Shown piece after piece: positions 30,516 through 63,285 of a DNA stretch of 64,000 bases (its first letter is position 1; each line of letters begins with the position of its first letter). Origin of the DNA: an uncultured Oscillospiraceae bacterium (lineage in GTDB: Bacteria; Bacillota; Clostridia; Peptostreptococcales; Anaerovoracaceae); contig CAYIYH010000003.1 in NCBI GenBank assembly GCA_964367585.1, positions 36,134 to 100,133 on the forward strand, read 5' to 3'. The notes under the pieces are model-generated. The model was not told where the DNA came from and made no database searches. It was given only the letters and a program-made list of their open reading frames with translations. The position numbers were made by a program, and so were the translations under genes.

Positions 30516-30537
30516 ATGCCTCCTAATATATGTTATT

Positions 30538-45056: not shown

Positions 45057-46430
45057 CTAGTCTACGATACCTAATAAGTATGTGAATGGTATTAAGACCA
45101 ACATTGCGATAACTGTTCTTTCTATGAATATAATTACCATGTCTCTAAACTTAATTGGAATTCTTGAGTTCAGCAAGAAAGAAATTACTTCTGAAATGAA
45201 CACAATTTGTGTAAGTGCAACTACAGTAACGATGAATCTTAGTTGAATAGACGCGGATTCAGCGATAAGGACAACAGGTAAAAACATGTCAAAGAATCCA
45301 GACGCGATCGCAGCTCCACCTTCAAATGCACCCGGAACTCCGGCAACTTGCAATATTAGGCCAAACGGATATCCTACCCATGTTAATATTGGCGTGTATT
45401 CCGCTATTGCCAAACTGATAACCCCTATTATCATTACGATTGGAACAAGTGTCAACAAAATCATTAAGTTTTGTTGTATTATTTTCTTTACTGTTCCTGC
45501 AATCCCAGCTGTGCTTGCGGCTTTCTCCGCTCCAAGTTGGCAAGAATATGAAACTAAAGACTGCCCACTAGGTCTACTGTCTACAGGGTCTATATTGTTT
45601 TCATTTGTTACCATATACTTATCTGGCAATTTTGACAATGGTGCTAATCTTACAGTAATAACTGCTACGATAAAACCTACCAAGAAAATTGCCGCGAAAA
45701 ATGGAATCAAGTACCCTTCCGTTACGCCTGTCATTTCTCCACAAACTAGCCAAAAAGCTACGCCTGTTGCAGTAAAGCAAGTTGCAATACTTGTTGCTTC
45801 TCTTTCTGTGTAATAACCTCTCGCATATTGGTCATCGGTAACTATCAAGCCCAGTTCAACCATTCCGACCCATGATGCTAATAAGTCTACTGAAGATCTA
45901 CCTGGTAGACGAAATAAAGGACGAATCATTTTGTTTACTAAAGTCCCTAAGAATTCCATTAATCCAAATTCAACGAGTAAAGGCATTAGTATTATAGCGG
46001 GTATTAGTTCGATACCAACTATAACACAAAGTCCTAACATTGTTCCACCAACATTTGGATTCAAAAGCATTTCTGGCCCGATATTGAATGCCACCATTAA
46101 TAGCAATACACTTCCCGCCAATCGTGCGATTAAGTTTAATTTTTTAGCATAAAATAGTTCATAAATCATGCTTTCTTTAGAAAACTTCGCAGGACATACT
46201 AATGATACAACCACCGTACCAATAAATGAAACTGCCGCCATAAGCATAGTGATATATTGTGCCAATGGGCCGAGTGTGTCATGAAACCATGTAGTAATAA
46301 TTCCTATAATTAAAGTAGTCGATCCCCCTGTGTAAAAATCGGGTACTGGACATAGGAAAATAAAAAAACCTAATAATGATAAAATTGCAAATTTAGCGTA
46401 ATTTCTTTTTTTGTCGACGTTATTGTTCAT
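45057..46430 (-). CDS. YjiH-like / Gate-domain membrane transporter (paralog 2)
   Basis: 457-aa multi-TM protein sharing the LMEFLGTLVNKMIRPLFRLPGRSSVDLLASWVG block with the other two paralogs. Confidence 0.7.
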   Translation of the reverse strand: MNNNVDKKRNYAKFAILSLLGFFIFLCPVPDFYTGGSTTLIIGIITTWFHDTLGPLAQYITMLMAAVSFIGTVVVSLVCPAKFSKESMIYELFYAKKLNLIARLAGSVLLLMVAFNIGPEMLLNPNVGGTMLGLCVIVGIELIPAIILMPLLVEFGLMEFLGTLVNKMIRPLFRLPGRSSVDLLASWVGMVELGLIVTDDQYARGYYTEREATSIATCFTATGVAFWLVCGEMTGVTEGYLIPFFAAIFLVGFIVAVITVRLAPLSKLPDKYMVTNENNIDPVDSRPSGQSLVSYSCQLGAEKAASTAGIAGTVKKIIQQNLMILLTLVPIVMIIGVISLAIAEYTPILTWVGYPFGLILQVAGVPGAFEGGAAIASGFFDMFLPVVLIAESASIQLRFIVTVVALTQIVFISEVISFLLNSRIPIKFRDMVIIFIERTVIAMLVLIPFTYLLGIVD

Positions 46431-46439
46431 ACTTTTTAC

Positions 46440-47411
46440 CTACTTTCTATTATATTTCCAAATATACGACAACATATCTAACATCAAACTAGCTGCATAT
46501 AATGATGTGCTTTCATTAGTATCATATGGTGGGCATACCTCCACCATGTCAAATCCCACGACCTTACCTTTTTTTGCGATACCTTCAAAAATTGGCGGGA
46601 TTTCCTCATAATGAAATCCAAAAGGTTGCGGGGATCCACACCCAGGAACTAAGCTTTGATCCATAGCATCGATGTCGAATGTGACATAATAATTTTCAGC
46701 CTTTGGAATATTATCTATGACCCATTGAATTCCGTTGTCTCTAACTTCTTTCATATTCATTATAATATTTCCATTATTTCTCGCGTCTTTCCAGTCACTC
46801 GGTTGAGAACTTCCAATGCCTCTCATTCCTATTTGTACTATTTGACTTACATTCTTCAGTGTAGAAGCATGACGCATTGGACTACCTTGTCCCTCAGAGA
46901 TTCCACCCGGATTAAGCGAAAAATCCAAATGCGCATCAATGTGTATCACACATAGATCTTCATATTTGTCAAAACCTCTAAGTATCGGAATTGTAATCGC
47001 ATGGTCTCCACCAATAGTAAATGGCACGGCTCCTTTTTCGATAATTTTTCTTATTGCACTTTCACAATTAACAAAAGACTGCTCATATTCAGTGTGGACA
47101 ACATCGATATCGCCTAAATCGACAACTTTCCAATTCTCATCCATATAAACTTCATCATCGGTTGGATTGTACCATCCGTTATGAGAGTAGCAATTCCATG
47201 TAGATGCTTCTCTGATTGCTCTCGGTGCGAATCTAGCACCGGGCCTAATCGCTGTCCCCAAATCATAAGGCATGCCAATTACAGCAACATCCGCATCCAA
47301 TTCATCGATATTTCCCTCGTATGGCGCTTTTAAAAACGTTGATATTCCGACAAAAGGATTATGCATTGCCTTTTTCTCATTTGTGGTAAAACCCCAATTC
47401 TCAACCTTCAT
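46440..47411 (-). CDS. Agmatinase/guanidinobutyrase-like ureohydrolase (canonical metal site)
   Basis: Signature blocks TIGGDHAITIP, IHIDAHLDF, TFDIDAMD and GFDMVEVCPPYD. Confidence 0.85.
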   Translation of the reverse strand: MKVENWGFTTNEKKAMHNPFVGISTFLKAPYEGNIDELDADVAVIGMPYDLGTAIRPGARFAPRAIREASTWNCYSHNGWYNPTDDEVYMDENWKVVDLGDIDVVHTEYEQSFVNCESAIRKIIEKGAVPFTIGGDHAITIPILRGFDKYEDLCVIHIDAHLDFSLNPGGISEGQGSPMRHASTLKNVSQIVQIGMRGIGSSQPSDWKDARNNGNIIMNMKEVRDNGIQWVIDNIPKAENYYVTFDIDAMDQSLVPGCGSPQPFGFHYEEIPPIFEGIAKKGKVVGFDMVEVCPPYDTNESTSLYAASLMLDMLSYIWKYNRK

Positions 47412-47574
47412 AATATTTCCCTCATTACTCTCATAATATTCTATTAATTACAATTTTCTATTAATTCAAATATTATACAACAAAAGAAAGTTCGTTCCCC
47501 CGATTTGCTTACACATTTTCTTTTCAATCTTAAAAAAATACTTCCTTTTCTTATTAACTTTCTTCCTAAAATTA

Positions 47575-47610
47575 CAAAAAGAGTGCAAACTCTATTGAGC
47601 AAGCACTCTT
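47575..47610 (-). terminator. Terminator after the AraC-type regulator gene
   Basis: Stem aagagtgc / gcactctt; a T-rich tail follows on the minus strand. Confidence 0.5.
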
Positions 47611-47658
47611 CTTATTATTTCATAATCGCTCATAATCAGCCAAGAGAATAATTCCAAC

Positions 47659-48879
47659 TTAGGAATGTGGTTCTAAGTTATTAATATGATTCTGAGTAAT
47701 TACAACGATTCCGTCTTCTTCATCACTCATATTCTCTATAACAATCCAATCGTCGTATTTTTCGTGTTCTAGAATTTTAATTTCTTTACCTTTCAATATT
47801 TTTATACTATCTCCGTATGCTCTTTTCAACATCAAATTGGCATTAGTTTCAATATAAAAAATTTTCCCCTCTACACCATCAGTGCCATATACGCCCGGAG
47901 AATACTCTGAAAATCCTTTTGGTATTTTGCTATCGTGGATATTACTAATTTTAGATTCGGTTATATTCGCTTTTCCCGTACTTAGGCAAATATTTTCGAT
48001 AAAAGAATTTTTATCATCTAAAATAGTATATGAAAATCTCTTATTCGCATTTTCCTTTCGGAATGAATTAGGCGACATATCAAACTGTTCTTTAATAGCT
48101 TTATAGTAGTATTTCTCGCTTGAAAATCCCGCCTTATCGATTATTTCACTATTCGTAAAATCCGAATTCAATAATAGTGAAACTGCATGCATAGTCCTAT
48201 AATATGTCATAATGGATTGAAACGATTTTGTGAATTTAGATGTTATTTCCGCTGACATATATGTTGAAGTCATATGAGTCAAATCGCTAATATCATTAAG
48301 TGTCACTTTATTTGATAGATTATTTAGCATATAGTTATCTACACTCAAAAATCTCTCTACTTCGGTTTGCTTTATCCCTGGGATGGCAAGTAAGTTTTCC
48401 TTGATATCATCAAAGTTTTCAACTAAAAATTGCATTATGTCTTTGCCTTTTTGTTGCAACTCTAAATCATTTACATTCGATTTACTATTATCGATATGCA
48501 ACTTGAGGAATTTTTTCGTTTTTTCTTTAAAGCTGTCTACATTCCTGTTCCTATTTTTTTTCAGCAGGGCTGTATCAGCAAAAAAAGCAGTTGTAGCTAT
48601 ATTTATTATTTTATTTTCTATGCTAGGCTCCCATTTAAGACATAGCTCTTTGCTAAATGAAATGACTAGCACTTTATTTTCTTCTGCTCCAAAAATACTT
48701 ACCGGTTCATTTATATTGAGAGTCTCTATGCTGCCTTCTTCTAAGGTTGCTTTTCCCCCGATAAATCCAATTTCAATTTCACCCTCTAATATCCATATTA
48801 TTCTAAACCATGGAATAGAATGATAATTCATTTCTTTAATATTCAGGAGTTCTATTTTGATTTGCTTTTCATCTACCAT
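47659..48879 (-). CDS. AraC-family regulator with an additional ~120-aa C-terminal domain
   Basis: 406 aa. It has an N-terminal cupin-like region, a central AraC HTH (...MTYYRTMHAVSLLLNSDFTNSEIIDKAGFSSEKYYYKAIKEQFDMSP) and an extra C-terminal beta-rich segment. Confidence 0.75.
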   Translation of the reverse strand: MVDEKQIKIELLNIKEMNYHSIPWFRIIWILEGEIEIGFIGGKATLEEGSIETLNINEPVSIFGAEENKVLVISFSKELCLKWEPSIENKIINIATTAFFADTALLKKNRNRNVDSFKEKTKKFLKLHIDNSKSNVNDLELQQKGKDIMQFLVENFDDIKENLLAIPGIKQTEVERFLSVDNYMLNNLSNKVTLNDISDLTHMTSTYMSAEITSKFTKSFQSIMTYYRTMHAVSLLLNSDFTNSEIIDKAGFSSEKYYYKAIKEQFDMSPNSFRKENANKRFSYTILDDKNSFIENICLSTGKANITESKISNIHDSKIPKGFSEYSPGVYGTDGVEGKIFYIETNANLMLKRAYGDSIKILKGKEIKILEHEKYDDWIVIENMSDEEDGIVVITQNHINNLEPHS

Positions 48880-50999: not shown

Positions 51000-52061
51000 T
51001 TATCTAATAACACTTTCAATCCAGTCCTTTATTACCATGGCAATTTCAATGTTATTTTTTTCCATCATCATCATATGGCCATTTCCATAAATTCCCTTCT
51101 CTTCTAGCCTCAAGTGTTCACAAGAAACCCCTGCTTGTCTCAAGTATTCATATGTCAAATGATCATACCTGGCATGATATGATGCTTCTGACGATAAAAT
51201 AAGGGTTGGTATATCTTTCAAATTTGGCAATGAATGAATTGGTTCACTTTGCAAAAAACCATCCGCCAAGCTTGCATTTCCGGAATCAAATATCTCTTTA
51301 CGAATATTATTTGCATCCTCAATTAACGGATCATATTTCAATGGAGTTTCGCTTAACCCCCACGGCCTTGCATCTTCATTTTCTATCGCAACATTTTGGA
51401 ACGGAGGCCCGATAGGCTCGATTGCAATTATTGCATTTACAAGCTCGGGACATTTTTCCGCAATTATCCAACCAAAGTTACCTGCTTGCGAATGAGTAAT
51501 TAGAGTTGCTTCACCTATTTCACTTAAGAGCGCAGCACCTGCTTTTTGAACTAATGTCTCAGTCTCCAAGTCACTTTTTAAAAAACCGACAGTGCTCCGG
51601 TAAAAATTGTCAAAAAACTTATCTCCCATCCTACCAGTTCCAGGCCATTGAGTATGTCTTTTAGCCTGTGGCCAATCGCCCAAACTCGAGGTGGCAGTAA
51701 AAAGACTTTCTAATAATTCCGCGCTATAGTAGTTCAATTCTCCTTGAAGTTTAGAGTTATATATCGATCTTCCTCTTGCTGGTTGTTCAAAAGTATAAAC
51801 AATAAAGCCCTCATCTATAAAATAGTTAATCCATCCATTTCTTCCATCTGGAGTTTCATGCCAACATAAAGATGTTAATGCTGATCCGTGAAAAAAAACT
51901 AGCGGTTTGGAATTGCGTATTTCTTTTGGAACGAATTTTTCTATATACGACTGGCCAATTAGATAGTTTTCGCCTTCTATTTCAATATACTCTCCACCTA
52001 CAAAAAAATTCTCTTTATATCGCATGTTTAATAGGGGACATACTTTAGAACTATCATTCAC
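51000..52061 (-). CDS. Alpha/beta-fold hydrolase
   Basis: 353 aa with a nucleophile-elbow-like motif (THSQAGN) and a C-terminal GNGHMMM block. Its stop codon directly abuts the stop of the convergent 50364 gene. Confidence 0.7.
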   Translation of the reverse strand: MNDSSKVCPLLNMRYKENFFVGGEYIEIEGENYLIGQSYIEKFVPKEIRNSKPLVFFHGSALTSLCWHETPDGRNGWINYFIDEGFIVYTFEQPARGRSIYNSKLQGELNYYSAELLESLFTATSSLGDWPQAKRHTQWPGTGRMGDKFFDNFYRSTVGFLKSDLETETLVQKAGAALLSEIGEATLITHSQAGNFGWIIAEKCPELVNAIIAIEPIGPPFQNVAIENEDARPWGLSETPLKYDPLIEDANNIRKEIFDSGNASLADGFLQSEPIHSLPNLKDIPTLILSSEASYHARYDHLTYEYLRQAGVSCEHLRLEEKGIYGNGHMMMMEKNNIEIAMVIKDWIESVIR

Positions 52062-52132
52062 AATAATGACATCCTTTCATTACATATAAAAAATAAGATA
52101 TCCAATATGTATTTTTGTCTAATTTGAAAATG

Positions 52133-52209
52133 AAACACCTTGAATCGCAAATTGAACTTCCAGTAAAACACATGTTTTTATTACGGAAGTAATTTATTCA
52201 AGATGTTTT
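52133..52209 (-). repeat. Long nested imperfect inverted repeat (~77 nt)
   Basis: It has three nested arm pairs: outer aaacaccttgaat / attcaagatgttt, middle acttcc / ggaagt, and centre aaaaca-ca-tgtttt. Confidence 0.45.
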
Positions 52210-52344
52210 ATTTCCATGTTTACCTGTTTAAGGTATTTCCATAATTATATTTCAGTAATAAAATGCGAACTATTTTTACACTCTAGTCCTTACCGCTTTA
52301 CAAATAGTTATTTTCTTCCCTAATCTATTATTAATAAAATTAAA

Positions 52345-53466
52345 TTATCTTGCAAATAGATCTTCTAGTATTGTACGCGCATCACTGTTGGTATATCCCC
52401 CAGGTGTACGGTCGAAATTTGGTGGGCGGTAAGAATCAAAGCGCTTCATTACATCGTCGATTTCATCCATACTTAAAACTGGCATTTCATAATCAAGAAG
52501 AGAATTCAAAAGCTCTGTCAATTCTTCTCTCGTAGAATTAATTGCTTCATAAAATTGTACGCTTTTTTCTGATGCGTGTTTTTCAGCTTTTTCTAAACAA
52601 GAAGGCAAAAATACTGCACAAGCATAACCATGTGGAACATGATAGTTTTCCGACAAAAAATATCCTAAAGCATGTCCAAAACATGTACTTGCAATGTTCA
52701 ATGAAAACCCAGCTAATATTGAAGCGAAATATAGATCGTCTCTCATTTCTTTTGTAAGCTCTATGATTTCCGCCTTATCTTTCAACACTCTATATACAGG
52801 CAATAGCATTTTAATTGCTTCAATTGAAAACATATCAGAAACTAGATTTCCTCTTGTTGAAAAATATCCTTCGCACGCATGACAAAATGCATCTATAGTA
52901 GTTGGAAGTGTATGTTTTAATGGAAGACCATCTGTATATTTTGGGTCGCAAAAAGCTATTTTTGCAAGAGTATCTTTGGATGATATACTTTTCTTTAGTC
53001 CAGTTGAATCCATTGTTATAACTGAATAAGGAGTTATTTCGCTGCCAGTTCCCGCTGTTGTACCTATCAAAACGAATGGCAATGCTGAATTTGTCCACTT
53101 ATGTTCCAAAATGGTTTCACCTTTAATGTCATTTGACGCAAATACAGATATCACCTTACATGAGTCAAGAGGAGAACCTCCACCTATTCCAATAATAAAG
53201 TCCACTTTGTTATTTCTAGCTATTGCCCCTGCTCTTTCACAAACCGAAAGCAATGGGTTGGGCTTCACCTCATCAAATAGGATATACTCAATACTGTTAT
53301 CGGCTAACGCACTCAAAACATCATCCAAAGCACCGCTCATTTTTGCGGACGTGCCACCGGTTACAATCATTGCTTTTTTTCCAAGTTTGAGTGCATTTGA
53401 ATGACTTCTTATACAATCTCTACCTGAAATTATTCTTACTGGAACATTAAAGTTTATGTTAATCAT
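52345..53466 (-). CDS. Iron-containing (group III) alcohol dehydrogenase
   Basis: 373 aa with GIGGGSPLDSCK and His-rich metal-site blocks (DAFCHACE...HALGY). Confidence 0.85.
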   Translation of the reverse strand: MININFNVPVRIISGRDCIRSHSNALKLGKKAMIVTGGTSAKMSGALDDVLSALADNSIEYILFDEVKPNPLLSVCERAGAIARNNKVDFIIGIGGGSPLDSCKVISVFASNDIKGETILEHKWTNSALPFVLIGTTAGTGSEITPYSVITMDSTGLKKSISSKDTLAKIAFCDPKYTDGLPLKHTLPTTIDAFCHACEGYFSTRGNLVSDMFSIEAIKMLLPVYRVLKDKAEIIELTKEMRDDLYFASILAGFSLNIASTCFGHALGYFLSENYHVPHGYACAVFLPSCLEKAEKHASEKSVQFYEAINSTREELTELLNSLLDYEMPVLSMDEIDDVMKRFDSYRPPNFDRTPGGYTNSDARTILEDLFAR

Positions 53467-53490
53467 TAATTCTCCTTATGTTTATATTAT

Positions 53491-54837
53491 CTAAAAGAAA
53501 ATGTGTATAAAAGGAACTATAAGTACAATAGTTAATATAACTCTTTCGAAGTAAATAATGAAAATGTCTCTAACTCTCAAAGGAACCGAGGATCCTAAAA
53601 TAATAGGAATTGGTTGAGCTATATAAAGCACTCCTGTAGTACCAATAACTGCGGTGAAAAATCTTGAGATTTCAGACTCCAAAGTCCCACCTATTACTGG
53701 AGCTAATAATTGGTCAACTACCCCTACAGTAATTGAAGTTGCTGTTTCAAATGGCTCTGGGATTCCAGCAAGCTGAATCAACCATCCAAATGGATACGCA
53801 AGAGTTTGTAATATACTAGTATATTCAAATATAGCAAGTGCTATCGTTCCTAAGGCCATTACTACAGGAACAACGCTAACGGCCATGCTTAAACCATCGA
53901 CAACACCTTCTTTTAGAGAGCCAGAAATAGTTCCTGTTTTTGCTCTGTTTACACCAGCTGCAACCGCAGCAGAAAACATGTCTTTACTTGCTGGAGATTC
54001 GCTCCTTACAATTTCTTTTCCGTTTAAATCAGTATTTTTATATCTATTTAAAGGATAAATTCTTGGTGTAATCATCGCGATAATAATACATATAATATAC
54101 GAAGTTAATATAAATTGGTATGCCATATGTCCTAAATTAACCATTTCTGCCATTACATACAAGAAGGGCATACTTACTAAAGAAAAGTTAGTGATAATAA
54201 TTGCCGCCTCCTTATCTGTATATTGTCCACTTTTATGCATTTTAGCAGTGTAATACATTCCTAATCCAGAAGAGCCAACCCAAGAAACAAGACAATCAAT
54301 ACAAGACATTCCAGGCACTTTGAATAATGTGTACATAATTTTTTGCATAAAAATGCCAATAAATTGAAGTGCTCCAAAGTTAGTTAAGAAAGGTAATATT
54401 AGACCACCAATTAGTACTGCAAGAGAAACAGATACACTCATTGACCCCATCAACCCACCTGTATTAGAACTGATTATAAACTCAGGTCCAATTTGCAATA
54501 AAGTCATTCCAAGAAAAAGAGCTCCTAGTATTCTGCAAATAGCCCATAGAGGTTTAGTTTTTACATTTTTTTCTAAAAAGCTAATTTTACCCTTTATGAA
54601 ATATGATAATATAGTTAAAATAGCACCTATTGAACAAATGACAAATGCGACCGGCACACGATTTTCCGATCCAATTGCCGATTTAACAGAATCTAATAAC
54701 CATGATAAAAAAGTTGTAACCTGACCATCTGAGGTAATCGGTCCTAAAAATATTAAAAAGGCAATAATTGAGGGTATTATGAATTTTAAATATTCACTAG
54801 TGGTAAATTTTTCTTTTGCTTTGCTTAATTCTGACAT
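53491..54837 (-). CDS. YjiH-like / Gate-domain membrane transporter (paralog 3)
   Basis: 448-aa multi-TM protein carrying the LQFIGIFMQKIMYTLFKVPGMSCIDCLVSWVG block. Confidence 0.7.
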   Translation of the reverse strand: MSELSKAKEKFTTSEYLKFIIPSIIAFLIFLGPITSDGQVTTFLSWLLDSVKSAIGSENRVPVAFVICSIGAILTILSYFIKGKISFLEKNVKTKPLWAICRILGALFLGMTLLQIGPEFIISSNTGGLMGSMSVSVSLAVLIGGLILPFLTNFGALQFIGIFMQKIMYTLFKVPGMSCIDCLVSWVGSSGLGMYYTAKMHKSGQYTDKEAAIIITNFSLVSMPFLYVMAEMVNLGHMAYQFILTSYIICIIIAMITPRIYPLNRYKNTDLNGKEIVRSESPASKDMFSAAVAAGVNRAKTGTISGSLKEGVVDGLSMAVSVVPVVMALGTIALAIFEYTSILQTLAYPFGWLIQLAGIPEPFETATSITVGVVDQLLAPVIGGTLESEISRFFTAVIGTTGVLYIAQPIPIILGSSVPLRVRDIFIIYFERVILTIVLIVPFIHIFF

Positions 54838-54966
54838 AGTTTTTCTCCTTTACATCTAACAATTACATACGAAACCATTTATTAGTTTTATTAGAATTTA
54901 AATAAAATTATTAATTTCTATAACCAATCATCTTTATATACTACTTAATCGTAGTATTTTTTATCG

Positions 54967-55941
54967 TCATATTATAAATTCATCTAGAAGTCTTAATAAA
55001 TAATATGCCGATATTCTCTCGCTTCTTCCCGACGGATCAAGTTCTGGCGCCACTTCAACGATGTCTATTCCATCTATTGGAGCGCTTGAAAGGGAATCCA
55101 TTATTTCACAGAACTGTCTAGGTGTTAACTTACTTTGTACGATTGATCCTGTACCAGGAAGAAAACCGGCATCTGTTGCATCTATATCTATAGATAAATA
55201 CACATGATCAACTCCCTTTGTCGCATGTTTGATAGCCATTAAGGCTATCTCTTTTGCACCTAAACGCCTAATATCATCCGAGGAAAAAATTTTTCCACCC
55301 ATGGATTCAATTATTGCGGTTTCCTCGCTATCAATCCAACCTGAGATTCCAATCCATACCATATTTGATTTTTCTACATTAGACAATTCCGAAATTCGAC
55401 GGGAATTTGTAGCATGATTATATTCCCCCCATGCCCCTAATCTGTCAGAAAAGTCCAAATGTCCGTCAATTTGAATATATCCAAACTTCGCATTAGGATC
55501 TATCTCTTCTAATGCTCTCGAATATCCTAAACATGCGGGATAACTATTAAAATGATCTCCGCCTAATGCGAGTGGTATCGTTCCAGCAATTCTTATCGCT
55601 TTTGTCATACTTGCAATAGATTCAATTGTCTGTGTCGGATCTTCCGGAAAAATAGTTGCGTTACCATAGTCAATAAGTTTACTGCGTCGTTTATTAGCAA
55701 ACGTTTTACCTGTTTTAATATCAATTATTTCATTTTTATCTTTTAAAGCACTTGTTTCTATTATTTCTGTTGATGCAACCCTTAGTGCATATGGCCCTAA
55801 TCTTGAACCAGTTCTACTTGAGTGAGTCCAATCTGATGGCATTCCCACTACCCCAATTCCTCCGTTTTTCACGTCATCTATATCTCCTACTGGAGACTTA
55901 AAAAGAGTAGGACTTGGAGATCCTATATTCTTATTTATCAA
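54967..55941 (-). CDS. Ureohydrolase (agmatinase/arginase family), canonical metal ligands
   Basis: Signature blocks LALGGDHFNSYP, IQIDGHLDF, SIDIDATD and GIDIVEVAPELD. A TTG start overlaps the upstream stop as TTGA. Confidence 0.8.
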   Translation of the reverse strand: MINKNIGSPSPTLFKSPVGDIDDVKNGGIGVVGMPSDWTHSSRTGSRLGPYALRVASTEIIETSALKDKNEIIDIKTGKTFANKRRSKLIDYGNATIFPEDPTQTIESIASMTKAIRIAGTIPLALGGDHFNSYPACLGYSRALEEIDPNAKFGYIQIDGHLDFSDRLGAWGEYNHATNSRRISELSNVEKSNMVWIGISGWIDSEETAIIESMGGKIFSSDDIRRLGAKEIALMAIKHATKGVDHVYLSIDIDATDAGFLPGTGSIVQSKLTPRQFCEIMDSLSSAPIDGIDIVEVAPELDPSGRSERISAYYLLRLLDEFII

Positions 55942-56930
55942 ATTATCACCTCATCTTTTTCTAAAAGGTCCATTCTAGCATAAATATACTTTAGAAGTGC
56001 GGTGACAAGCATTCTCTGCCCTGTTTTTACAATTCCAAATCCATTCACCGTGGGGTCAATACCCGTTACTATCAACGATGAAGTAGGGATTTGCCCCAAA
56101 GCAATAAGCATATTTTGAATTTCAACCAATGACATTCCATTCAAATTAGGCTTTTCAGACATACCGTGCAAGCTTGAATCCATAAACGAAATATCTAATA
56201 CAGCAACAACTTCATCCACTTTATCCCTTATTTCTTCAAATAACGACCTATAATTTCCGTGTAGAGCTTTTATTTTATTTTTGCTAACGATTTTTCCATT
56301 GTTATTAACAAAATCTTCATAAAATTCTATAGTTGGAAGCGAGTTTGGAGCAATAAATATCATGTTTTTCTTATCAATTACTTTTTCATTTACTAACTTC
56401 TCAACAGATAACTGTGATTTTGAATCCTTATTTTGAGAAACACTTCCCCCAAGTTGTATATAACCAATCTGATTACCTTCTGAAATTCCCTTAACAACAC
56501 TATAAATACTACCTTCACTTCCAGCTAAAACTATTGTGCTTGCTTTCGTATTTTGCAAATCAGAAAAAATTGATGATATTTTTTCACTAATCTCATTTTT
56601 TGTCAATCCATCAAGCGAAATATCACCTATATCAACAAGTTTTTCATTAATGCACCCAGTATCAACTACTTGTCTACTAACTACATCAATCGGTGCACTT
56701 TTGAATTGTGGATTTGAAAACCATCCATAATATACAGAAGTTTCCCGTATTCCAAGTGAAGCATATCTATATCCAGTAGAGTCTGAGTCTGATTCGAAAG
56801 GAATTCCAATCACAGCCACTTTGTCTGAGGTAAGTTCTTCCATCTGCTCAAATTTAGCACGCATGAAAGTTAGTCTTCCTGCAAGTCTGGGTAGTGCTGA
56901 AGTTCTTAATACAGAATTATCATCACTCAT
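55938..56930 (-). CDS. Arginase-fold paralog with degenerate metal site (predicted non-catalytic or neofunctionalised)
   Basis: It has the same block order as the ureohydrolases, but GGDH reads AGSEG, DAHxD reads LGGSVS and DxDxxD reads LDISFMD. Confidence 0.7.
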   Translation of the reverse strand: MSDDNSVLRTSALPRLAGRLTFMRAKFEQMEELTSDKVAVIGIPFESDSDSTGYRYASLGIRETSVYYGWFSNPQFKSAPIDVVSRQVVDTGCINEKLVDIGDISLDGLTKNEISEKISSIFSDLQNTKASTIVLAGSEGSIYSVVKGISEGNQIGYIQLGGSVSQNKDSKSQLSVEKLVNEKVIDKKNMIFIAPNSLPTIEFYEDFVNNNGKIVSKNKIKALHGNYRSLFEEIRDKVDEVVAVLDISFMDSSLHGMSEKPNLNGMSLVEIQNMLIALGQIPTSSLIVTGIDPTVNGFGIVKTGQRMLVTALLKYIYARMDLLEKDEVII

Positions 56931-56931
56931 A

Positions 56932-57852
56932 TTACTCCTCTTTTCCTAATATATTTACTATCAAAGTACATATTTCCTGTACCGATTCGATTTCATCGCG
57001 CCCCCAGAGGTCAATCTCTGGAACAAATCCCGTGAAGTCTCCAGCGATGAAGGATTTTTTTATTCTTTTAAGCGAAATTAACAATCTTTTCAATTCTTCT
57101 AGATCTAACCCCGAATACAAATTCTCGTAGGTCGTCTTCAAAATTAAAGGTTTCAACACATCTGCATCAACACTAATATATAACCCATCGAAATTCCTAG
57201 CCCACATATTGATGTCAACAATCAACTCTTCTATTTTGTTTTCTTTAATTTTATGGGATGGAATAACTTTAATACCCTCGGATTTTACAATTTCTTCGTT
57301 AGAAACAATACCCGAAACACCGATAATATTAATCTTTCCTTTATCGCATTCTAACAAGTCAATAATAGTCGAAGTTGTTTCGTATCTTGTTACTCCTGGA
57401 TTCTTTTCACTTTTATTTTTCGCAAGATCTAGACGTCTTGAAATCCTAATGAATCCTATGTTCTTCGTTTTTAATTCTTCCAAAATCCCATCAAATATTG
57501 GAGGGATAATGCTGTAATCTCCACCTATTATCAATTGCTTTGATTTTGTATCTATTATTTTTTGTGACTGACTTTTCAAAACATGATAATTCTTTTCGTA
57601 TTCCAAAGGAAATACATTCAAATCACCAATATCCACAACCTCAAATTGTGTGCATTCTATTCCATTTCTTTTTTCATTAGGATAACTTGAGTACCTCAAC
57701 TGACGCGGCATAATCCTTGAACCGGGAGTTCCACCACCATAATGGTCACAAAAAACGCCAGCAACGGCAATCGTTTTATCTGAAAGATCATTTAATTCAC
57801 AAAACGGTGCATCAAAAAATGTAGGAATATCTCTTAATTTATAGTCGTTCAA
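56932..57852 (-). CDS. Arginase-fold paralog with degenerate metal site
   Basis: GGDH reads GGDY and DAHxD reads ISRRLD, while SVDADVL retains D-x-D. A TTG start overlaps the upstream stop as TTGA, with AAGGAGG 7 nt upstream. Confidence 0.7.
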   Translation of the reverse strand: MNDYKLRDIPTFFDAPFCELNDLSDKTIAVAGVFCDHYGGGTPGSRIMPRQLRYSSYPNEKRNGIECTQFEVVDIGDLNVFPLEYEKNYHVLKSQSQKIIDTKSKQLIIGGDYSIIPPIFDGILEELKTKNIGFIRISRRLDLAKNKSEKNPGVTRYETTSTIIDLLECDKGKINIIGVSGIVSNEEIVKSEGIKVIPSHKIKENKIEELIVDINMWARNFDGLYISVDADVLKPLILKTTYENLYSGLDLEELKRLLISLKRIKKSFIAGDFTGFVPEIDLWGRDEIESVQEICTLIVNILGKEE

Positions 57853-58808
57853 TCAAACACCTCCTTCAAAATAAAGGAATTAATAACATTCAAAATTGTC
57901 TGCGCTGCAATATATTGCGTATGATTTCTATTGTCGAGTGATGGTGCTACATTTGTTAGTGAAACTGCGGTGAGCTTATTCCCTATCTCAATTCCATTTG
58001 ACAGGTTGATCAAGTGTTCCGGTTTTAATCCTCCGATATTTAAAACTGGAGTACCCGCCGCAAATCCAGTATCAACTACCGCCATATCTATAGAACAAAT
58101 TATATTTTCACATTGAGATACAAATTCATTAATTTTACCAGAAATATATTTTATTTCATTTTCATATATCTCCTCTGCAGTAATTACTTGAGCTGTGATA
58201 CGATCCAAATCATTCATTTGTATTTTGGATACATACCCATTCAACCCTATAATCATTACTTTCTTAACATTCTCAATCTGAGATAAAAGAGTTAGTAATT
58301 CCGTGGACTCTTCATCAACAAGATTCGGAAACGACAAACTATTCGAAAAAATAATTATCCCTGTATTAGAACAATATAGGTCAGGATTACTGATTATTGA
58401 TTCACTAATTCTACTATCTCCACCAAGTAGTATGGGAATTCCGCCTTTTGAATTGATTTCTGAAACTAATAATTTAAGTGAATCCATGTTTTTTTTGTAT
58501 AACATGTAGGATTCGTCAACATCCCCAAAATCGAATCCTGCATTTTCCCCAATAAATCTGTATTTTTTATTTGTTTCTATATCAATTATTGTATTTGAGG
58601 GAGATTCCCTATAACAATCAAGTATAGAGCCGACCATCCTTCTTATTTCTTTAGGACCATCTGAAGTGCCTACCCTAAGAGGTGGCACAGAATCCACCGG
58701 AATCCCCACGACACATAGCATATCTTTTAAAATAGATTCATCATTTTTGCTTGGAAATTGCGCAAAATTTGGGATATCTTTCTTCGAGACCATTATATTT
58801 TTTTTCAT
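57849..58808 (-). CDS. Arginase-fold paralog with degenerate metal site
   Basis: GGDH reads GGDS, DAHxD reads FSNSLS and DxDxxD reads SIDMAVVD. GGAGGA lies upstream of the ATG at 58808. Confidence 0.7.
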   Translation of the reverse strand: MKKNIMVSKKDIPNFAQFPSKNDESILKDMLCVVGIPVDSVPPLRVGTSDGPKEIRRMVGSILDCYRESPSNTIIDIETNKKYRFIGENAGFDFGDVDESYMLYKKNMDSLKLLVSEINSKGGIPILLGGDSRISESIISNPDLYCSNTGIIIFSNSLSFPNLVDEESTELLTLLSQIENVKKVMIIGLNGYVSKIQMNDLDRITAQVITAEEIYENEIKYISGKINEFVSQCENIICSIDMAVVDTGFAAGTPVLNIGGLKPEHLINLSNGIEIGNKLTAVSLTNVAPSLDNRNHTQYIAAQTILNVINSFILKEVFD

Positions 58809-58823
58809 TTTTCCTCCAAAATT

Positions 58824-59714
58824 TTAGTCACACACATTAATATTTATATTATGTCCACTATAAACGCCTTCAATCATTGACTTTTCGTATTTTGCCGCGT
58901 TCAACAACTTCTCATAATCTATACCTGTATCATATCCCATGTTATTTAGCATGAACACCAAATCTTCCGTGGAAGTATTTCCTGAAGCCCCTTTAGCAAA
59001 GGGACATCCACCCAAGCCACCTAGGGAAACTTGAACATCTGTAATTCCGCATTCGATAGCCGCGAGCGTATTTAGCATCCCCATATTCCTTGTATCGTGG
59101 ATATGCACCTGAATACAGCAATCAGGAAACTCTTGTATTGCTTTTTTTACGAATTCACGTATTATATCCGGCGTCGCAATCCCTATTGTGTCGGCTAATA
59201 TAAAATTTCTTATCCCAAAGGCATAACCTTTTTTCATGAAATCAATTAACTCGTGGACTTGTGGGAGACCCTCAATGGGGCACCCAAACGCAGTTGCTAT
59301 TCCCATCCATATTTTTAATTCCGGGATTTCTTCCATAATATTTTTCATGTCCTCAAATGACTGCTCATGTGTTCTATTTATGTTTGCCATATTATGACTT
59401 TTGCTTAGAGAAATAACATATGCCACTTCTTTTATTCCCAAAGAAATCGCCTTTTTTGCTCCAAACAAATTAGGAACTAATGCACTGAATACAACATCCT
59501 TGTATCTTTTTAAACATTCTTCAACTATCTCTTGTGCATCTTTTAATTGTGGAATTGCTTTTGGACTTACAAATGAAGTAACTTCCATGTGCTTTACACC
59601 GGATTGCAAAATTTGATCGATAATTTCCAATTTTGTTTTTGCAGGTATGTATTCTTTTAAATTTTGAAACCCATCTCTTGGGCCTACTTCGATTATATTA
59701 ATTTTCTTATTCAC
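58824..59714 (-). CDS. HMG-CoA lyase-like (DRE-TIM metallolyase) enzyme
   Basis: 296 aa with N-terminus INIIEVGPRDGFQN and an HIHDTRNMG metal-site block. Confidence 0.85.
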   Translation of the reverse strand: MNKKINIIEVGPRDGFQNLKEYIPAKTKLEIIDQILQSGVKHMEVTSFVSPKAIPQLKDAQEIVEECLKRYKDVVFSALVPNLFGAKKAISLGIKEVAYVISLSKSHNMANINRTHEQSFEDMKNIMEEIPELKIWMGIATAFGCPIEGLPQVHELIDFMKKGYAFGIRNFILADTIGIATPDIIREFVKKAIQEFPDCCIQVHIHDTRNMGMLNTLAAIECGITDVQVSLGGLGGCPFAKGASGNTSTEDLVFMLNNMGYDTGIDYEKLLNAAKYEKSMIEGVYSGHNININVCD

Positions 59715-59732
59715 ACTTATACCCCATGTAGA

Positions 59733-60959
59733 CTAAATGATACCTTTAAGCTTTAGCTCTTCAATTTTCTTTGAGTCAAAGCCCAAATATTCATTATAAA
59801 TTTCTTCATTATGTTGACCTAACAGAGGGGATGGCATTCTTATCTCGGCTTTTTTATCACTAAATTTAATATGATCACCTGTGATAGTTGTTTTTCCCGC
59901 AACAGGATGATCTACTTCAACAAACATTTCTCTTGCCTTAGCGATATGAGGATCTGTGACAACTTTATCAATTGTATAAATCGGAGCCGAAGGCACTCCA
60001 ACTTCTAATAATATTTCTACTATTTGCTCTACATCATATTTTAATGACCAACTTTCAATAATAGTCTTTAATTCTTCATGATGTTTTAGTCTGCTTGGAT
60101 TATCAGCAAATTTCTCTTCTTCCAGTACTTCCGGAAATCCGGCTACTTTTGCGAAAACTTCGAATAATTTGTCATTTCCGGCTGCAATCACAACCGTTCC
60201 ATCTTTAGCTCTAAAGGTATCGTAAGGATAAGATGATGCATATCTATTTCCGTTTCTTTGTGGTATTTTTCCTTCCGTGAGGTATATTTGTGTGATTATC
60301 TCTAAAGATGAAACTACCGAATCAACTAATGAAACATCTATTTTCTGTCCTTCTCCCGTTTTTATTTTATTAACCACAGCAGCCAAAACACCAATTGTCA
60401 TGCTTAAACCACCTAAAACATCTCCCATAGCAGTGCCTGTACGAGTCGGTTCTCCTCCAGGCCATCCAGTGGTACTCATTAACCCTCCCATAGCCTGTGC
60501 AATAATGTCATATCCCGGTCTCTCGCTATACGGCCCATAATGACCAAAACCCGAGACGCACCCATATACTATTCCAGGATTTACTTTCTTCAATTCTTCA
60601 TATCCAATACCTAACCTATCCATAACACCTGGCCTATAGTTTTCTAATACTACATCAGCTTGTTTTACCATCTCCAGAAACATACTCTTACCTTTTTCAG
60701 ATTTTAAGTTTAATGTAATACCTTTTTTGTTTCTGTTAATATTCATATAGTAAGCGCTTTCACCATTTACAAAAGGTGCGAATGCTCTTGTATCGTCGCC
60801 TTTTTCTGGGATTTCTATTTTAATAACATTCGCACCCATGTCCGCCAAAAGCATCCCACTATAGGGCCCTGCCAAAACTCTTGTTAAATCTAAAACTGTA
60901 ATCCCATCTAAAATTCCCTTATTCACCTTAATCACATTTTCCTTCCGTTGATATATCAA
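59733..60959 (-). CDS. Family III (CaiB/BaiF) CoA-transferase
   Basis: GITVLDLTRVLAGPYSGMLLADMGANVIKIE is typical of the family. The track start is TTG 60959; GTG 60935 after GGAAGGA is an alternative. Confidence 0.85.
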   Translation of the reverse strand: MIYQRKENVIKVNKGILDGITVLDLTRVLAGPYSGMLLADMGANVIKIEIPEKGDDTRAFAPFVNGESAYYMNINRNKKGITLNLKSEKGKSMFLEMVKQADVVLENYRPGVMDRLGIGYEELKKVNPGIVYGCVSGFGHYGPYSERPGYDIIAQAMGGLMSTTGWPGGEPTRTGTAMGDVLGGLSMTIGVLAAVVNKIKTGEGQKIDVSLVDSVVSSLEIITQIYLTEGKIPQRNGNRYASSYPYDTFRAKDGTVVIAAGNDKLFEVFAKVAGFPEVLEEEKFADNPSRLKHHEELKTIIESWSLKYDVEQIVEILLEVGVPSAPIYTIDKVVTDPHIAKAREMFVEVDHPVAGKTTITGDHIKFSDKKAEIRMPSPLLGQHNEEIYNEYLGFDSKKIEELKLKGII

Positions 60960-61003
60960 AGTACAAAAGCTACCGATCTTTTCTTTGTTATAATCAATGA
61001 AAT

Positions 61004-61019
61004 AGCAAACATCGTGCCA
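61004..61019 (-). promoter_or_regulatory. Sigma54 (-24/-12) promoter
   Basis: The minus strand reads TGGCAC-GATGT-TTGCT, a consensus match with exact spacing, ~45-70 nt upstream of the CoA-transferase start. Confidence 0.75.
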
Positions 61020-61115
61020 AAGCAGAAAAATATATAAAAATGATACTTTTTACACTAAAAGACTTGAAATGTACACTTCCGGAGGTATTTTGTCTATTTA
61101 TGGAAAAAATGACCA

Positions 61116-61161
61116 TTGCAACATGTTGCTACTTTATGCAACATAGTAACATTATGTTGCA
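61116..61161 (-). promoter_or_regulatory. Candidate enhancer (UAS) sites for the sigma54 activator
   Basis: There is a perfect 12-bp palindrome GCAACATGTTGC (61118-61129) and the pair TGCAACATA-N7-TATGTTGCA (61137-61161). Both share a TGCAACAT half-site and lie ~100-145 bp upstream of the -24 element. Confidence 0.5.
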
Positions 61162-61230
61162 GCGCAAGACGCTACATCCTTATGCAAACATTTTTTTATA
61201 AACTTCATGATTTCACACATAGCAATATAA

Positions 61231-61266
61231 AAAAGGAGATATTCGCCAAAATGCCGATATCTCCCT
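61231..61266 (-). terminator. Terminator after the PrpR-type activator gene
   Basis: Stem ggagatat / atatctcc; CTTTTTTATATT follows on the minus strand. Confidence 0.6.
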
Positions 61267-61299
61267 TTAAGGTTCTAGATTAATATGTGTAAACACAAC

Positions 61300-63285
61300 T
61301 TATATTTTTATATTATATTTATTCATTTTTCTCCAAAGAGTTTGCCTACTCATGGATAATATTCTCGCAGTCTTAATGACTGAAAAATTATTTTCAGTTA
61401 AAGCTTCTATTATTGCTATTCTTTCTAAGTTACCATCTTCATATGTGTACTTCTGCGCTATCGAGCACCTATTCTCCATACTCGACATATCAATATTATT
61501 GGAATTATCTTCACTAATATTAGTTAGCAAGCTTTTTCCAATTAAAGAGCTGTTTAACACATCATAACCATTTTTCATCAGTATGAAGAATCTTTCTACG
61601 AAATTCTGCAACTCTCTAACATTGCCGTACCATTTATAGTTTTTAATTACATCCATATATATAACAGTCTCGAAATCATTCGTGAAATCGATTGATAAAT
61701 CTTTCGAATATTCTTTCAAAAACTTATGGCCCAAAAAGGCAATATCCCCCTCTCTGTTTCTCAAAGGTGGGATTTTCACATCTAGAACACTTAATCTAAA
61801 ATATAAATCTCTCCTAAATTCGTTATTTTTAACCTCTTCTTCCAAATCTTTGTTAGTAGCAGTAATAACTCTAATATCTACCGGAATTACTTCACTACTC
61901 CCTATTCTCCTCACTTCTTTTTCTTGAAGCACTCGCAGCAGATTAACTTGAGTCTCTCTTGAAATTTCGCCTATTTCATCTAAAAATATTGTCCCACCAT
62001 GTGCCATTTCAAAAAAACCCGGCTTTCCCTCTTTGTTTGCACCTGTAAAAGAACCTTCTTCATATCCAAACAACTCACTTTCCAATAGCCCTTTAGCTAT
62101 TGCAGCGCAATTAACTGCCACAAAAGGTCCATTCCTTCTCTCACTTGCATTATGGATACTTTGAGCAAACAACTCTTTCCCAGTGCCAGTCTCTCCTCTG
62201 ATAATTACTGCAGCATTTTCCTTTGCATAACTTTTGGCAATACTGATCGCTGACAATATTTCCGCAGATTGCCCTAGTATATCCTCAAACTTGTATTTTG
62301 CAATCAACCCTTTTTTTGCTAATTTCATTCTTATTTTTTTTTCATTATTTTGTATAGTATTTATGTCCTGAAAAGTCGCAACTATACCCTTTATATCCCT
62401 GTTCACCATTATTGGTATTATATTTGTTATTAATAAGGTGTTGTTTATGTTTATTAGCTTGTTTAATTTTGGAACTTCACTCTCAAGCACTTCTTTTATT
62501 TCTTCTTGCAAAATAGGCACTGATAATGACATATCAAAATGATCATCCGCATGTTTGCCTATCATTTTACTAGCATTATTATTAATTGTTAATATATTAC
62601 AGTTCTGATCTGTTACGATAATTGAATCATGACTATAATTCAAAATTGCCATATATTTTTCTAATTGAGTTTTTAGTTCAATCTGCCTTATCTCTTCTTC
62701 TTTATGAATTTTTAACATTTTCTTTGCTACATTTATAGCACTTATAATGGCATCGTCAGAACTTTCTACGATAACATGCTCAAGACCAAGCTCTTTAGCA
62801 TATTTTTCTGTAACACTACCACCAACAGCCATTTTTGCACCATCTTTTATGGCTTCTCGAACACAAATTTCACAATCTTTATTGTTCTTATAATAATATG
62901 GCCTAATATTGACATCTAATATTTTACAAATAGCCTTTATATCCAAACTCACTTCTTGATAAGTAAAAAGAGCAACTAATCCTTCACAATCTTTAGTTGC
63001 TTCAAATATCCTAATATAATCCTCAGTGCTTGTTTCCACATTTACGACATTAGCTTTGTATTTACTACTTAAGTAACTTGCAACACCTTTTCGACTAATA
63101 AAGATCTTCGCACCTGAACTAATAAGTTCGCGATACAGACCGTCAACTTCATCAACTGTACTTAAATATACCCCTATATTATGTTCATTATTTTCACTAA
63201 TAATTTTTTCCGCATTCTCCACAAGGTATTTTGATGGTGCAATGAAGCAGATTTCATTCGCCTTTATTTTATGATTTAAATTCAT
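61300..63285 (-). CDS. Sigma54-dependent activator with PrpR-like N-terminal sensor domain, PAS, AAA+ and HTH
   Basis: 661 aa with motifs GETGTGKELFAQSIH and ESELFGYEEGSFTGA, a C-terminal HTH, and an N-terminal ~190 aa that resemble the PrpR_N domain. Confidence 0.85.
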   Translation of the reverse strand: MNLNHKIKANEICFIAPSKYLVENAEKIISENNEHNIGVYLSTVDEVDGLYRELISSGAKIFISRKGVASYLSSKYKANVVNVETSTEDYIRIFEATKDCEGLVALFTYQEVSLDIKAICKILDVNIRPYYYKNNKDCEICVREAIKDGAKMAVGGSVTEKYAKELGLEHVIVESSDDAIISAINVAKKMLKIHKEEEIRQIELKTQLEKYMAILNYSHDSIIVTDQNCNILTINNNASKMIGKHADDHFDMSLSVPILQEEIKEVLESEVPKLNKLININNTLLITNIIPIMVNRDIKGIVATFQDINTIQNNEKKIRMKLAKKGLIAKYKFEDILGQSAEILSAISIAKSYAKENAAVIIRGETGTGKELFAQSIHNASERRNGPFVAVNCAAIAKGLLESELFGYEEGSFTGANKEGKPGFFEMAHGGTIFLDEIGEISRETQVNLLRVLQEKEVRRIGSSEVIPVDIRVITATNKDLEEEVKNNEFRRDLYFRLSVLDVKIPPLRNREGDIAFLGHKFLKEYSKDLSIDFTNDFETVIYMDVIKNYKWYGNVRELQNFVERFFILMKNGYDVLNSSLIGKSLLTNISEDNSNNIDMSSMENRCSIAQKYTYEDGNLERIAIIEALTENNFSVIKTARILSMSRQTLWRKMNKYNIKI

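Follow-up and report, generated by a model that had tools for sequence, protein, structure and literature searches.

Four arginase-fold paralogues with a single complete metal site in a predicted sigma-54-type operon linked to a CoA-transferase and an HMG-CoA-lyase-family enzyme

We analyzed a 64,000-nt stretch of contig CAYIYH010000003.1 from an uncultured Oscillospiraceae bacterium, called the window throughout, and within it the minus-strand unit at 52345-61019, which encodes four arginase-fold paralogues (A1 to A4) together with a coenzyme A (CoA) transferase, a lyase, a transporter and an alcohol dehydrogenase. On balance, we favor the reading that this unit is one sigma-54-dependent catabolic operon, in which a heteromeric hydrolase built from the four paralogues, with A4 as its catalytic member, would work alongside a route through an acid resembling 3-hydroxy-3-methylglutarate (HMG) or citrate. 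We put forward more tentatively, at somewhat short of even confidence, that the hydrolase is an obligate four-component arginase-fold holoenzyme, composed of one catalytic and three pseudo-enzyme subunits, and that it opens a new route from a guanidino or amidino compound, by way of an HMG/citrate-like acid, to acetyl-CoA. Gene calls were checked against Pfam and NCBIfam, and the unit and its flanks contain the following features.

61300-63285, minus strand: sigma-54 activator gene with PrpR_N, PAS, Sigma54_activat, AAA_lid_14 and HTH_8 domains (Pfam, NCBIfam)
61231-61268, minus strand: hairpin AAAAGGAGATAT/ATATCTCCCTTT with a T-run on the coding strand (inverted repeat I6)
61117-61161, no strand assigned: palindromic TGCAACAT...ATGTTGCA repeats (inverted repeats I2 and I12)
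61004-61019, minus strand: -24/-12 sigma-54 promoter TGGCACGATGTTTGCT, an exact consensus match
59733-60926, minus strand: class III CoA-transferase (Pfam CoA_transf_3, 428 bits); the open reading frame (ORF) call extends to 60959
58824-59714, minus strand: HMG-CoA-lyase-family enzyme (Pfam HMGL-like; NCBIfam PRK05692)
57849-58808, minus strand: arginase-fold paralogue A1 (Pfam Arginase, 98 bits)
56932-57852, minus strand: arginase-fold paralogue A2 (Pfam Arginase, 96 bits)
55938-56930, minus strand: arginase-fold paralogue A3 (Pfam Arginase, 42 bits)
54967-55941, minus strand: arginase-fold paralogue A4 (Pfam Arginase, 188 bits)
53491-54837, minus strand: Gate-domain membrane transporter (Pfam), the presumed substrate importer
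52345-53466, minus strand: Fe-alcohol dehydrogenase (Fe-ADH), the last gene of the unit (Pfam, NCBIfam)
52126-52216, minus strand: hairpin of ~90 nt located 3′ of the Fe-ADH gene (folding compared with shuffled sequences)
51000-52061, minus strand: Abhydrolase_6 alpha/beta hydrolase (Pfam)

An initial annotation, made from the letters alone, had described a tightly packed minus-strand run headed by a consensus sigma-54 promoter, and both parts of this description stand. The families named for the genes agree with Pfam and NCBIfam, although for the transporter, first called YjiH-like, it is the Gate domain that is shown. The intergenic distances from the CoA-transferase to the Fe-ADH are 18, 15, -4, 1, -4, 129 and 24 nt. 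The promoter lies downstream of the activator gene and heads this run; it is the sole exact match to TGGCAC-N5-TTGCW in the window, compared with 0.03 matches expected by chance, and any match at all appeared in 3 of 100 shuffles. It has the form TGGCAC-N5-TTGCT. The GTG at 60926 (VNKGILDG...), which we take as the most likely start of the CoA-transferase in preference to the TTG at 60959, follows ~78 nt downstream.

The proposed sigma-54-type control by a PrpR_N-PAS-AAA+ protein is likewise supported by the sequence. The activator carries a Walker A motif (GETGTGK), GSFTGA at residue 411, a PF00158 domain (231 bits) and HTH_8, and thus combines the AAA+ interaction domain with its GAFTGA-type loop and the DNA-binding helix-turn-helix that characterize sigma-54 enhancer-binding proteins. 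It falls outside the PrpR group itself, scoring 371 bits against the 499-bit cutoff of the PrpR equivalog TIGR02329, and no prp genes adjoin it. A Firmicute relative at locus L063, 58% identical to the window activator, adjoins the same cluster. The hairpin at 61231-61268 likely terminates the activator gene, and the palindromic repeats between that gene and the promoter, ~100-150 bp upstream of the latter, could be binding sites of the activator (upstream activating sequences). The likeliest inducer would be the HMG/citrate-like acid, sensed by the PrpR_N domain, whose archetype we take to bind 2-methylcitrate. We saw no rpoN among the scanned window genes; a second activator with a near-consensus promoter elsewhere in the window suggests that the sigma-54 system is in use. 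An Rfam search for riboswitches, those for guanidine included, gave no match in the operon or its vicinity.

At the other end of the unit, the 283-nt gap past the Fe-ADH gene is indeed structured, as had been claimed (z = -2.6, with 0 of 200 shuffles equally stable), and matched no Rfam family. The hairpin at 52126-52216 within it probably marks the 3′ end of the transcript and acts as a terminator. It is followed by only a weak U-tract, and a regulatory or processing role is possible. The alpha/beta hydrolase beyond it had been suggested as a further operon member, and this suggestion fared less well: the gene does not accompany the cluster in Firmicute relatives, its product does not specifically resemble the PcaD-like hydrolase of eight proteobacterial loci, and it sits past the long hairpin. 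For these reasons we leave it out of the unit, and it probably lies outside the operon.

The four-gene set is rare and recurs far from its host. A word-indexed search of 5.8 billion proteins returned 21 A3 relatives, and when 1.84 billion cluster representatives were scanned in full with HMMER, 35 A3 matches reached E <= 1e-30, matches weaker than ~1e-27 being ordinary HDHDDD ureohydrolases; Firmicute-type A3 relatives were not found in the metagenome scans. Among 185,579 species, each represented by a single genome, 51 loci with the four-gene set were located. The majority of these carriers are marine Alpha- and Gammaproteobacteria, and the carrier taxa include Ruegeria, Shimia, Sulfitobacter, Pelagimonas, Ca. 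Thioglobus/Pseudothioglobus and Njordibacter; a few are Betaproteobacteria or metagenome-assembled genomes (MAGs) of Desulfuromonadales or Acidimicrobiales, and one is a Firmicutes MAG. Because the gene combination recurs in other Firmicutes (L012, L063-L066) and, accompanied by other transporter, regulator and redox genes, in ~50 proteobacterial species, it is no chance neighborhood. The initial annotation had drawn on the amino-acid fermentation operons of Clostridia, but the cluster is confined neither to that class nor to fermentation: most carriers are aerobic marine Proteobacteria. One assembly contains three copies of the entire proteobacterial cluster, at L007, L008 and L009 (contigs of 0.33, 0.64 and 9.4 Mb). 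Transposase genes (IS66, IS91 or IS1595) flank every copy, and the aldehyde dehydrogenase (ALDH) is shortened to 98 aa in each; the cluster there appears mobile or recently amplified.

We counted the gene context across 54 non-redundant loci, throughout which the order A1-A2-A3-A4 is invariant. A class III CoA-transferase is present in 34 of them, at least 28 of these 34 also having a lyase, which is HMGL-like in 16 and citryl-CoA-lyase-like in 12. The citryl-CoA-lyase-like protein has a citrate-synthase fold and passes its NCBIfam equivalog NF004864 at 432 bits against a cutoff of 261. An aldehyde/alcohol oxidoreductase gene is usual as well and differs between groups, being an ALDH in aerobes and an Fe-ADH in Firmicutes; the ALDH, present at 30 of the 54 loci, is closest to alpha-ketoglutaric semialdehyde dehydrogenase. 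ATP-binding cassette (ABC) importers accompany 33-36 of the 54 loci, and their binding protein is nearest to binders of mannopine (MotA, 214 bits), agropine and gamma-aminobutyrate (GABA). IclR regulators are frequent among the loci. In Roseobacter loci, an apparently conserved 270-aa ORF in the interval from the ABC genes to A1 proved to be an artefact of ORF calling, the real gene being the IclR regulator on the opposite strand.

The layout of the Firmicute clusters resembles that of the window. Their gene orders read HMGL-A1-A2-A3-A4-TIGR04076-Gate in L066, A(1/2)-A3-A4-TIGR04076-Gate-FeADH in L063 and L064, and A2-A3-A4-Gate-CoA-transferase-HMGL-FeADH-pyruvate:ferredoxin oxidoreductase in L012, so that the HMGL gene is directly upstream of A1 in L066 and the CoA-transferase-HMGL pair follows the transporter in L012. 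The Gate transporter of the window has orthologues of 51-61% identity in the same position in L012, L063 and L064, and an orthologue of its Fe-ADH (60% identical) follows the transporter in L063 and L064. The continuation of the L012 cluster into pyruvate:ferredoxin oxidoreductase fits an oxo-acid as product.

A small protein often follows A4. At 33 of the 54 loci, in Proteobacteria, it is a 236-aa protein without a Pfam family, encoded directly after A4 (e.g. L001:9107-9817) and rich in Trp, Cys and His, with the motifs HRHEDIGWRP, CRGY and NEWD. It had no sequence match in Pfam, NCBIfam or the PDB; its AlphaFold2 model has a predicted local distance difference test score (pLDDT) of 81, with non-significant matches to FGE-like folds, and its family comprises 93 clusters, some with >350 metagenomic members. 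The place after A4 is taken in Firmicute relatives by a Cys-rich TIGR04076 protein of 100 aa (L063:2492-2794, L066:4363-4665). The window encodes neither protein, and the 129-nt gap occupies that position. The small protein may serve as an additional subunit or deliver metal.

PF02515 covers the window CoA-transferase in full (1-366 of 366, 428 bits), and its closest solved relatives are the human succinate--hydroxymethylglutarate CoA-transferase SUGCT (PDB 9br6, 308 bits) and YfdE (300 bits); no NCBIfam equivalog cutoff was reached. It contains a GTAMGD motif, the Asp of which we take to be catalytic by analogy with formyl-CoA transferase. The lyase passes the NCBIfam HMG-CoA-lyase subfamily PRK05692 (278.7 bits, cutoff 246) and is nearest to human and bacterial HMG-CoA lyases (human HMGCL, 2cw6, 217 bits). 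Its GPRDG, HIHD and GLGGCP sequences are presumably the catalytic Arg-Asp, His-x-His and GGCP Cys motifs of human HMGCL. The idea of CoA activation followed by retro-Claisen cleavage has gained support, the lyase beside the CoA-transferase being either HMGL-like or, by non-orthologous replacement, citryl-CoA-lyase-like. Given this SUGCT-/HMG-CoA-lyase-like pair, its citryl-CoA-lyase-type replacement, the pyruvate:ferredoxin oxidoreductase of L012 and the PrpR_N sensor, the simplest account is that the intermediate undergoing activation and cleavage is a 3-hydroxy-3-substituted dicarboxylate of the HMG, citramalate or citrate type.

The same genes can be read in another way, in which the hydrolase is heteromeric but the CoA-transferase, lyase and alcohol dehydrogenase serve a separate function (e.g. 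an HMG or ketone-body-type salvage) and merely share the operon. At L010, L011, L022, L024 and L027 the four-gene set occurs without a nearby CoA-transferase or lyase, and since the set stands alone in unrelated surroundings in this minority of loci, the hydrolase is self-standing and can be combined with other gene sets. The CoA-transferase and lyase also resemble ordinary SUGCT/HMGCL-type enzymes, and their conservation is lower than that of A4. However, one promoter serves all window genes of the unit, and the association with the four-gene set survives changes of phylum, transporter, regulator, gene order and even lyase family, which a linkage without function would be unlikely to do. We therefore favor a functional link and give the separate-function alternative a modest chance of being right.

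We next consider the paralogues themselves. The initial annotation had listed four arginase-fold proteins and had implicitly taken them for enzymes; the fold is confirmed for all four, each above the Pfam gathering score (PF00491), and the complete metal site that an enzyme of this fold would need is found in A4 alone. To define ligand loss, we scored the six His/Asp residues of the binuclear metal center (GGDH, DxHxD, DxD) in a joint alignment of the window and 46 orthologous sets, giving 47 sequences per family, from Firmicutes to Proteobacteria. The A4 protein of the window retains six of six ligands (GGDH, DGHLD, DID), and the full set is present in 38 of 47 A4 sequences. A1, with GGDS, FSNSL and DMA in place of the motifs, keeps 0-2 of the six; A2 (GGDY, SRRLD, DAD) keeps 0-4, mostly 1 or 3; and A3 (AGSE, LGGSV, DIS) keeps 1-2, its ligand positions invariably reading x-G-x-x-D-S/T. 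The complete set is thus confined to A4, and the other three families retain 0-4 ligands, usually 1-3. Neighboring paralogues of which only one has a complete metal site are also the hallmark of the MefH/DmgH-type hydrolases. In the SUP05/Njordibacter-type clade (L001, L007, L014, L015, L020, L021, L059), a Cys replaces the first Asp of DxD in A4; the resulting motif, SLCIDAMD, is an unusual ligand change and may reflect a different metal.

The loss of ligands is itself a conserved feature. A3 has 57 invariant columns across 12 sequences sharing 35-58% identity with the window protein, and its own invariant motifs RETSVYYGW, NPQF and VKTGQR. The AlphaFold2 model of A3 (predicted template modeling score, pTM, 0.79) matches structures of metformin hydrolase, guanidinase and formiminoglutamase at a template modeling (TM) score of ~0.66, which argues that the ureohydrolase fold is retained. 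Residues 1-25 and 48-77 are its most conserved parts, yet have a pLDDT <50 in the monomer model; they hold the motifs LRTxxLPRxAGxLTFMR and RETSVYYGWxxNPQF, and the model fits their being interface or partner-dependent loops.

The paralogue genes are coupled in translation. At the A1/A2 and A3/A4 junctions a TTG start overlaps the preceding TGA, and the Shine-Dalgarno sequences of the A2 and A4 starts lie within the gene before them; a single nucleotide separates A2 from A3, and an internal ribosome-binding site is found at each A1-A4 junction. The paralogues are mutually 14-24% identical, and the median identity of orthologues to the window protein is 55% for A4, 35% for A3, 29% for A2 and 24.5% for A1. 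It follows that the paralogues duplicated long ago and that constraint is strongest on A4, the presumed catalytic subunit. Every locus, whether from Firmicutes or from Alpha-, Beta- or Gammaproteobacteria, has intact A1-A3 ORFs, and this integrity, the invariant columns of A3 and its modeled ureohydrolase fold indicate that A1-A3 are likely under selection rather than decaying.

What the complex releases is a separate question. It might release amine or ammonia instead of urea from a substituted guanidine (guanidine itself, methylated guanidines or a guanylurea-type compound, as with GdmH, DmgH and MefH), so that the system would serve mainly nitrogen acquisition. The best PDB sequence matches of A4 are the guanidine hydrolase 7esr (95 bits) and guanidinopropionase 3nip (93 bits); metformin hydrolase chains are among both the best sequence matches to A4 and the fold matches to A3, and the guanidine hydrolases 7esr and 9fek are among the closest solved relatives of both proteins. 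The heteromeric architecture, moreover, is so far known only in MefH and DmgH. Against this, the cluster contains no nickel chaperones, guanidine riboswitch (Rfam) or urea/guanidine carboxylase genes, and the operon is rich in carbon-processing enzymes and has an organic-solute transporter, the corresponding binding protein elsewhere being nearest to mannopine and GABA binders. We assign a small chance to this alternative and keep urea as the more probable product of the proposed complex.

It is very improbable that A1-A4 are four independent ureohydrolases acting on different guanidino substrates. The above-threshold Pfam scores of all four proteins would suit such a set, as would two more stand-alone arginase-family genes in the window, which imply that the organism uses several such enzymes; but A1-A3 consistently lack most of the six ligands, and the fixed order, stop/start overlaps and co-inheritance indicate a single assembly. 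That A1-A3 are functionless decaying duplicates and the module a historical accident is hardly credible, because their low Pfam scores (42-98 bits) and degenerate metal sites are accompanied by intact ORFs at all loci, family-specific invariant motifs, a preserved predicted fold and maintained translational coupling.

Under the preferred reading, a heteromeric hydrolase linked to an HMG/citrate-like acid route, the adjacent PrpR_N-PAS activator would switch the operon on and the Gate-domain protein would import the substrate. The A1-A4 heteromer would then hydrolyze a guanidino or amidino C-N bond, with A4 performing the chemistry and urea the most likely leaving product. By analogy with the metal-free beta subunits of metformin and dimethylguanidine hydrolases, A1, A2 and A3 would be conserved partners without catalysis of their own, joining A4 in a complex in which they shape or stabilize the active enzyme. 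The carbon skeleton would be converted to a 3-hydroxy-3-substituted dicarboxylic acid of the HMG, citramalate or citrate type, with an aldehyde/alcohol step carried out by the Fe-ADH here and by the ALDH in aerobic carriers. Finally, the SUGCT-like CoA-transferase would activate the acid and the HMG-CoA-lyase-type enzyme would split its CoA ester into acetyl-CoA and an oxo-acid. What the analysis shows directly is the gene content, the promoter, the loss of ligands in A1-A3 and the conservation and co-occurrence of the module; we infer the assembly of the complex, the release of urea, this order of steps and the identities of substrate and acid from the gene set. A guanidino-substituted hydroxy/keto acid, as first proposed, is a plausible putative substrate. 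We also considered 4-guanidino-3-hydroxybutyrate, hydroxyarginine, octopine/nopaline-type opines, ectoine-type cyclic amidines, galegine, guanidinoacetate/creatine and mevalonate-like guanidino acids, and found support for none of them. The initial annotation could map the combination to no pathway, and full-text literature searches and a study of Clostridiales sigma-54 regulons likewise yielded no account of a four-paralogue ureohydrolase or of this cluster, and no pathway assigned to it.

Several points weigh against this reading. Among natural guanidino and amidino compounds, none known to us has a skeleton like that of HMG, and the step from the hydrolase to the CoA enzymes is chemically unexplained. 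The loci that carry the four-gene set without CoA-transferase or lyase indicate that the hydrolase can serve other contexts. The window CoA-transferase and lyase are 35-41% identical to their proteobacterial counterparts while A4 is 55% identical, and the substrate is perhaps not shared with Proteobacteria. The exchange of Fe-ADH in Firmicutes for ALDH in Proteobacteria lacks a clear explanation. HypA/HypB-type metal chaperones are absent from the window operon and from the conserved neighbors across the 54 loci. A four-subunit stoichiometry is hard to fit onto the trimer/hexamer architecture usual for the fold, and the A1-A4 complex and its substrate are predictions from genes.

The rest of the window shows the metabolic setting. 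Its G+C content is ~35%, and the source organism is a low-GC, amine- and amino-acid-fermenting anaerobe; all window proteins tested were singletons at 90% identity in a 15-billion-protein collection. Three further units are present. An AraC-linked unit at 44043-48879 encodes two arginase-family enzymes, both with six of six metal ligands. A second sigma-54 unit spans 24703-30569 on the minus strand, and its gene content suggests opine or quaternary-amine catabolism. A region at 7927-19686, minus strand, holds selenoprotein machinery and a reductase cluster, which also encodes a Gly_reductase component B subunit, a thioredoxin-reductase-like protein and a fused GrdC/D-like protein of 854 aa.

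47659-48879, minus strand: AraC-type regulator, in the separate unit 44043-48879
46440-47411, minus strand: arginase-family gene above the agmatinase equivalog cutoff (TIGR01230, 188 bits against 174)
45057-46430, minus strand: paralogous Gate transporter of the AraC unit
44043-44978, minus strand: second canonical arginase-family gene of the AraC unit
29151-30569, minus strand: PAS-AAA+-HTH_8 activator of the second sigma-54 unit
28984-28999, minus strand: -24/-12 site TGGCATGATAATTGCT of the second sigma-54 unit, with one mismatch
27741-28988, minus strand: Octopine_DH-family (opine-dehydrogenase-family) dehydrogenase of the second sigma-54 unit
26288-27670, minus strand: further paralogous Gate transporter of the second sigma-54 unit
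24703-26142, minus strand: MttB-family methyltransferase of the second sigma-54 unit
19594-19686, minus strand: tRNA-Sec, with selA and selB in the same region
16019-16118, minus strand: glycine riboswitch upstream of the glycine/sarcosine/betaine reductase gene cluster
12974-13011, minus strand: SECIS_4 element directly downstream of the in-frame stop at which GrdB ends

If the proposed complex exists, it has consequences for how the arginase fold is understood. The first heteromeric ureohydrolases were recognized in 2024, and their origin was explained as recent adaptation to a drug. A four-paralogue complex would mean that pseudo-subunit architectures in this fold are ancient, more elaborate (with three degenerate paralogues) and tied to natural metabolism, and would amount to a level of heteromeric complexity undescribed for the fold. 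Apart from this, the analysis marks a conserved catabolic cluster of 8-12 genes without an assigned substrate. Should the route be real, some guanidino or amidino metabolite would have to be common enough to sustain it in marine Roseobacter, SUP05-type and other Proteobacteria as well as in anaerobic Firmicutes, and the hundreds of metagenomic members in clusters of the protein without a Pfam family point to a possible unrecognized compound of dissolved organic nitrogen and to urea or ammonia arising from a new marine source. Some carriers are in culture (Ruegeria lacuscaerulensis, Shimia abyssi DSM 100673 and Pelagimonas varians DSM 23678), and the question is therefore directly testable.

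The activator shares PrpR_N, the AAA+ sigma-54 domain and HTH_8 with PrpR, the 2-methylcitrate-responsive activator of prpBCDE; unlike PrpR, it scores below the equivalog cutoff, has an extra PAS domain and controls a different operon that lacks prp genes. The CoA-transferase and lyase resemble the SUGCT and HMG-CoA lyase pair in their best PDB matches and motifs, both being a class III CoA-transferase with an HMGL-family lyase, and pairs of this type convert a free 3-hydroxy-3-methyl dicarboxylate to acetyl-CoA and an oxo-acid. The R-citramalate CoA-transferase and R-citramalyl-CoA lyase of Chloroflexus are a comparable pair. To our knowledge, neither pair has linked ureohydrolases, a dedicated transporter or sigma-54 control, and relatives of the window differ further from these pairs in that a citryl-CoA-lyase-family protein replaces the lyase in 12 loci.

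Among the ureohydrolases, GdmH (Synechocystis Sll1077, PDB 7esr/7oi1) is the best solved match to A4 and likewise to A1-A3, and GdmH, the Nitrospira guanidinase (9fek) and A1-A4 all belong to the agmatinase-like branch. In contrast to A1-A4, GdmH and the Nitrospira enzyme are homomeric, keep all ligands, act on free guanidine and need nickel chaperones; the identity of A4 to GdmH-type enzymes is low, so that a transfer of substrate would be unjustified.

The closest architectural parallel is with MefH (MfmAB/MetCaCb) and DmgH, heteromeric nickel-dependent ureohydrolases (PMC11399263, PMC11271267) that are active solely as alpha2beta4 heteromers with metal ligands in alpha alone, an architecture termed unprecedented in the family in 2024 (PMC11399263). 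Like A1-A4, they are encoded by tandem arginase-family genes of which only one subunit type carries the His/Asp ligands, and both rank among the top sequence and fold matches of A4 and A3. Their degenerate subunit is required for activity, and A1-A3 are likewise degenerate in their metal sites. MefH and DmgH have two paralogues, whereas four are found here, three of them degenerate. MefH is accompanied by hypA/hypB nickel chaperones and a nickel transporter, which the window cluster lacks. MefH is described as recently evolved and plasmid-borne, whereas the A1-A4 module, with its highly diverged paralogues, is ancient and spread across phyla. The gene context also differs, being one of carbon catabolism here and of urea/guanidine nitrogen metabolism for MefH and DmgH. 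Heteromeric ureohydrolases as a kind are thus already known; the four-paralogue form and the conserved pathway linked to it appear to be new.

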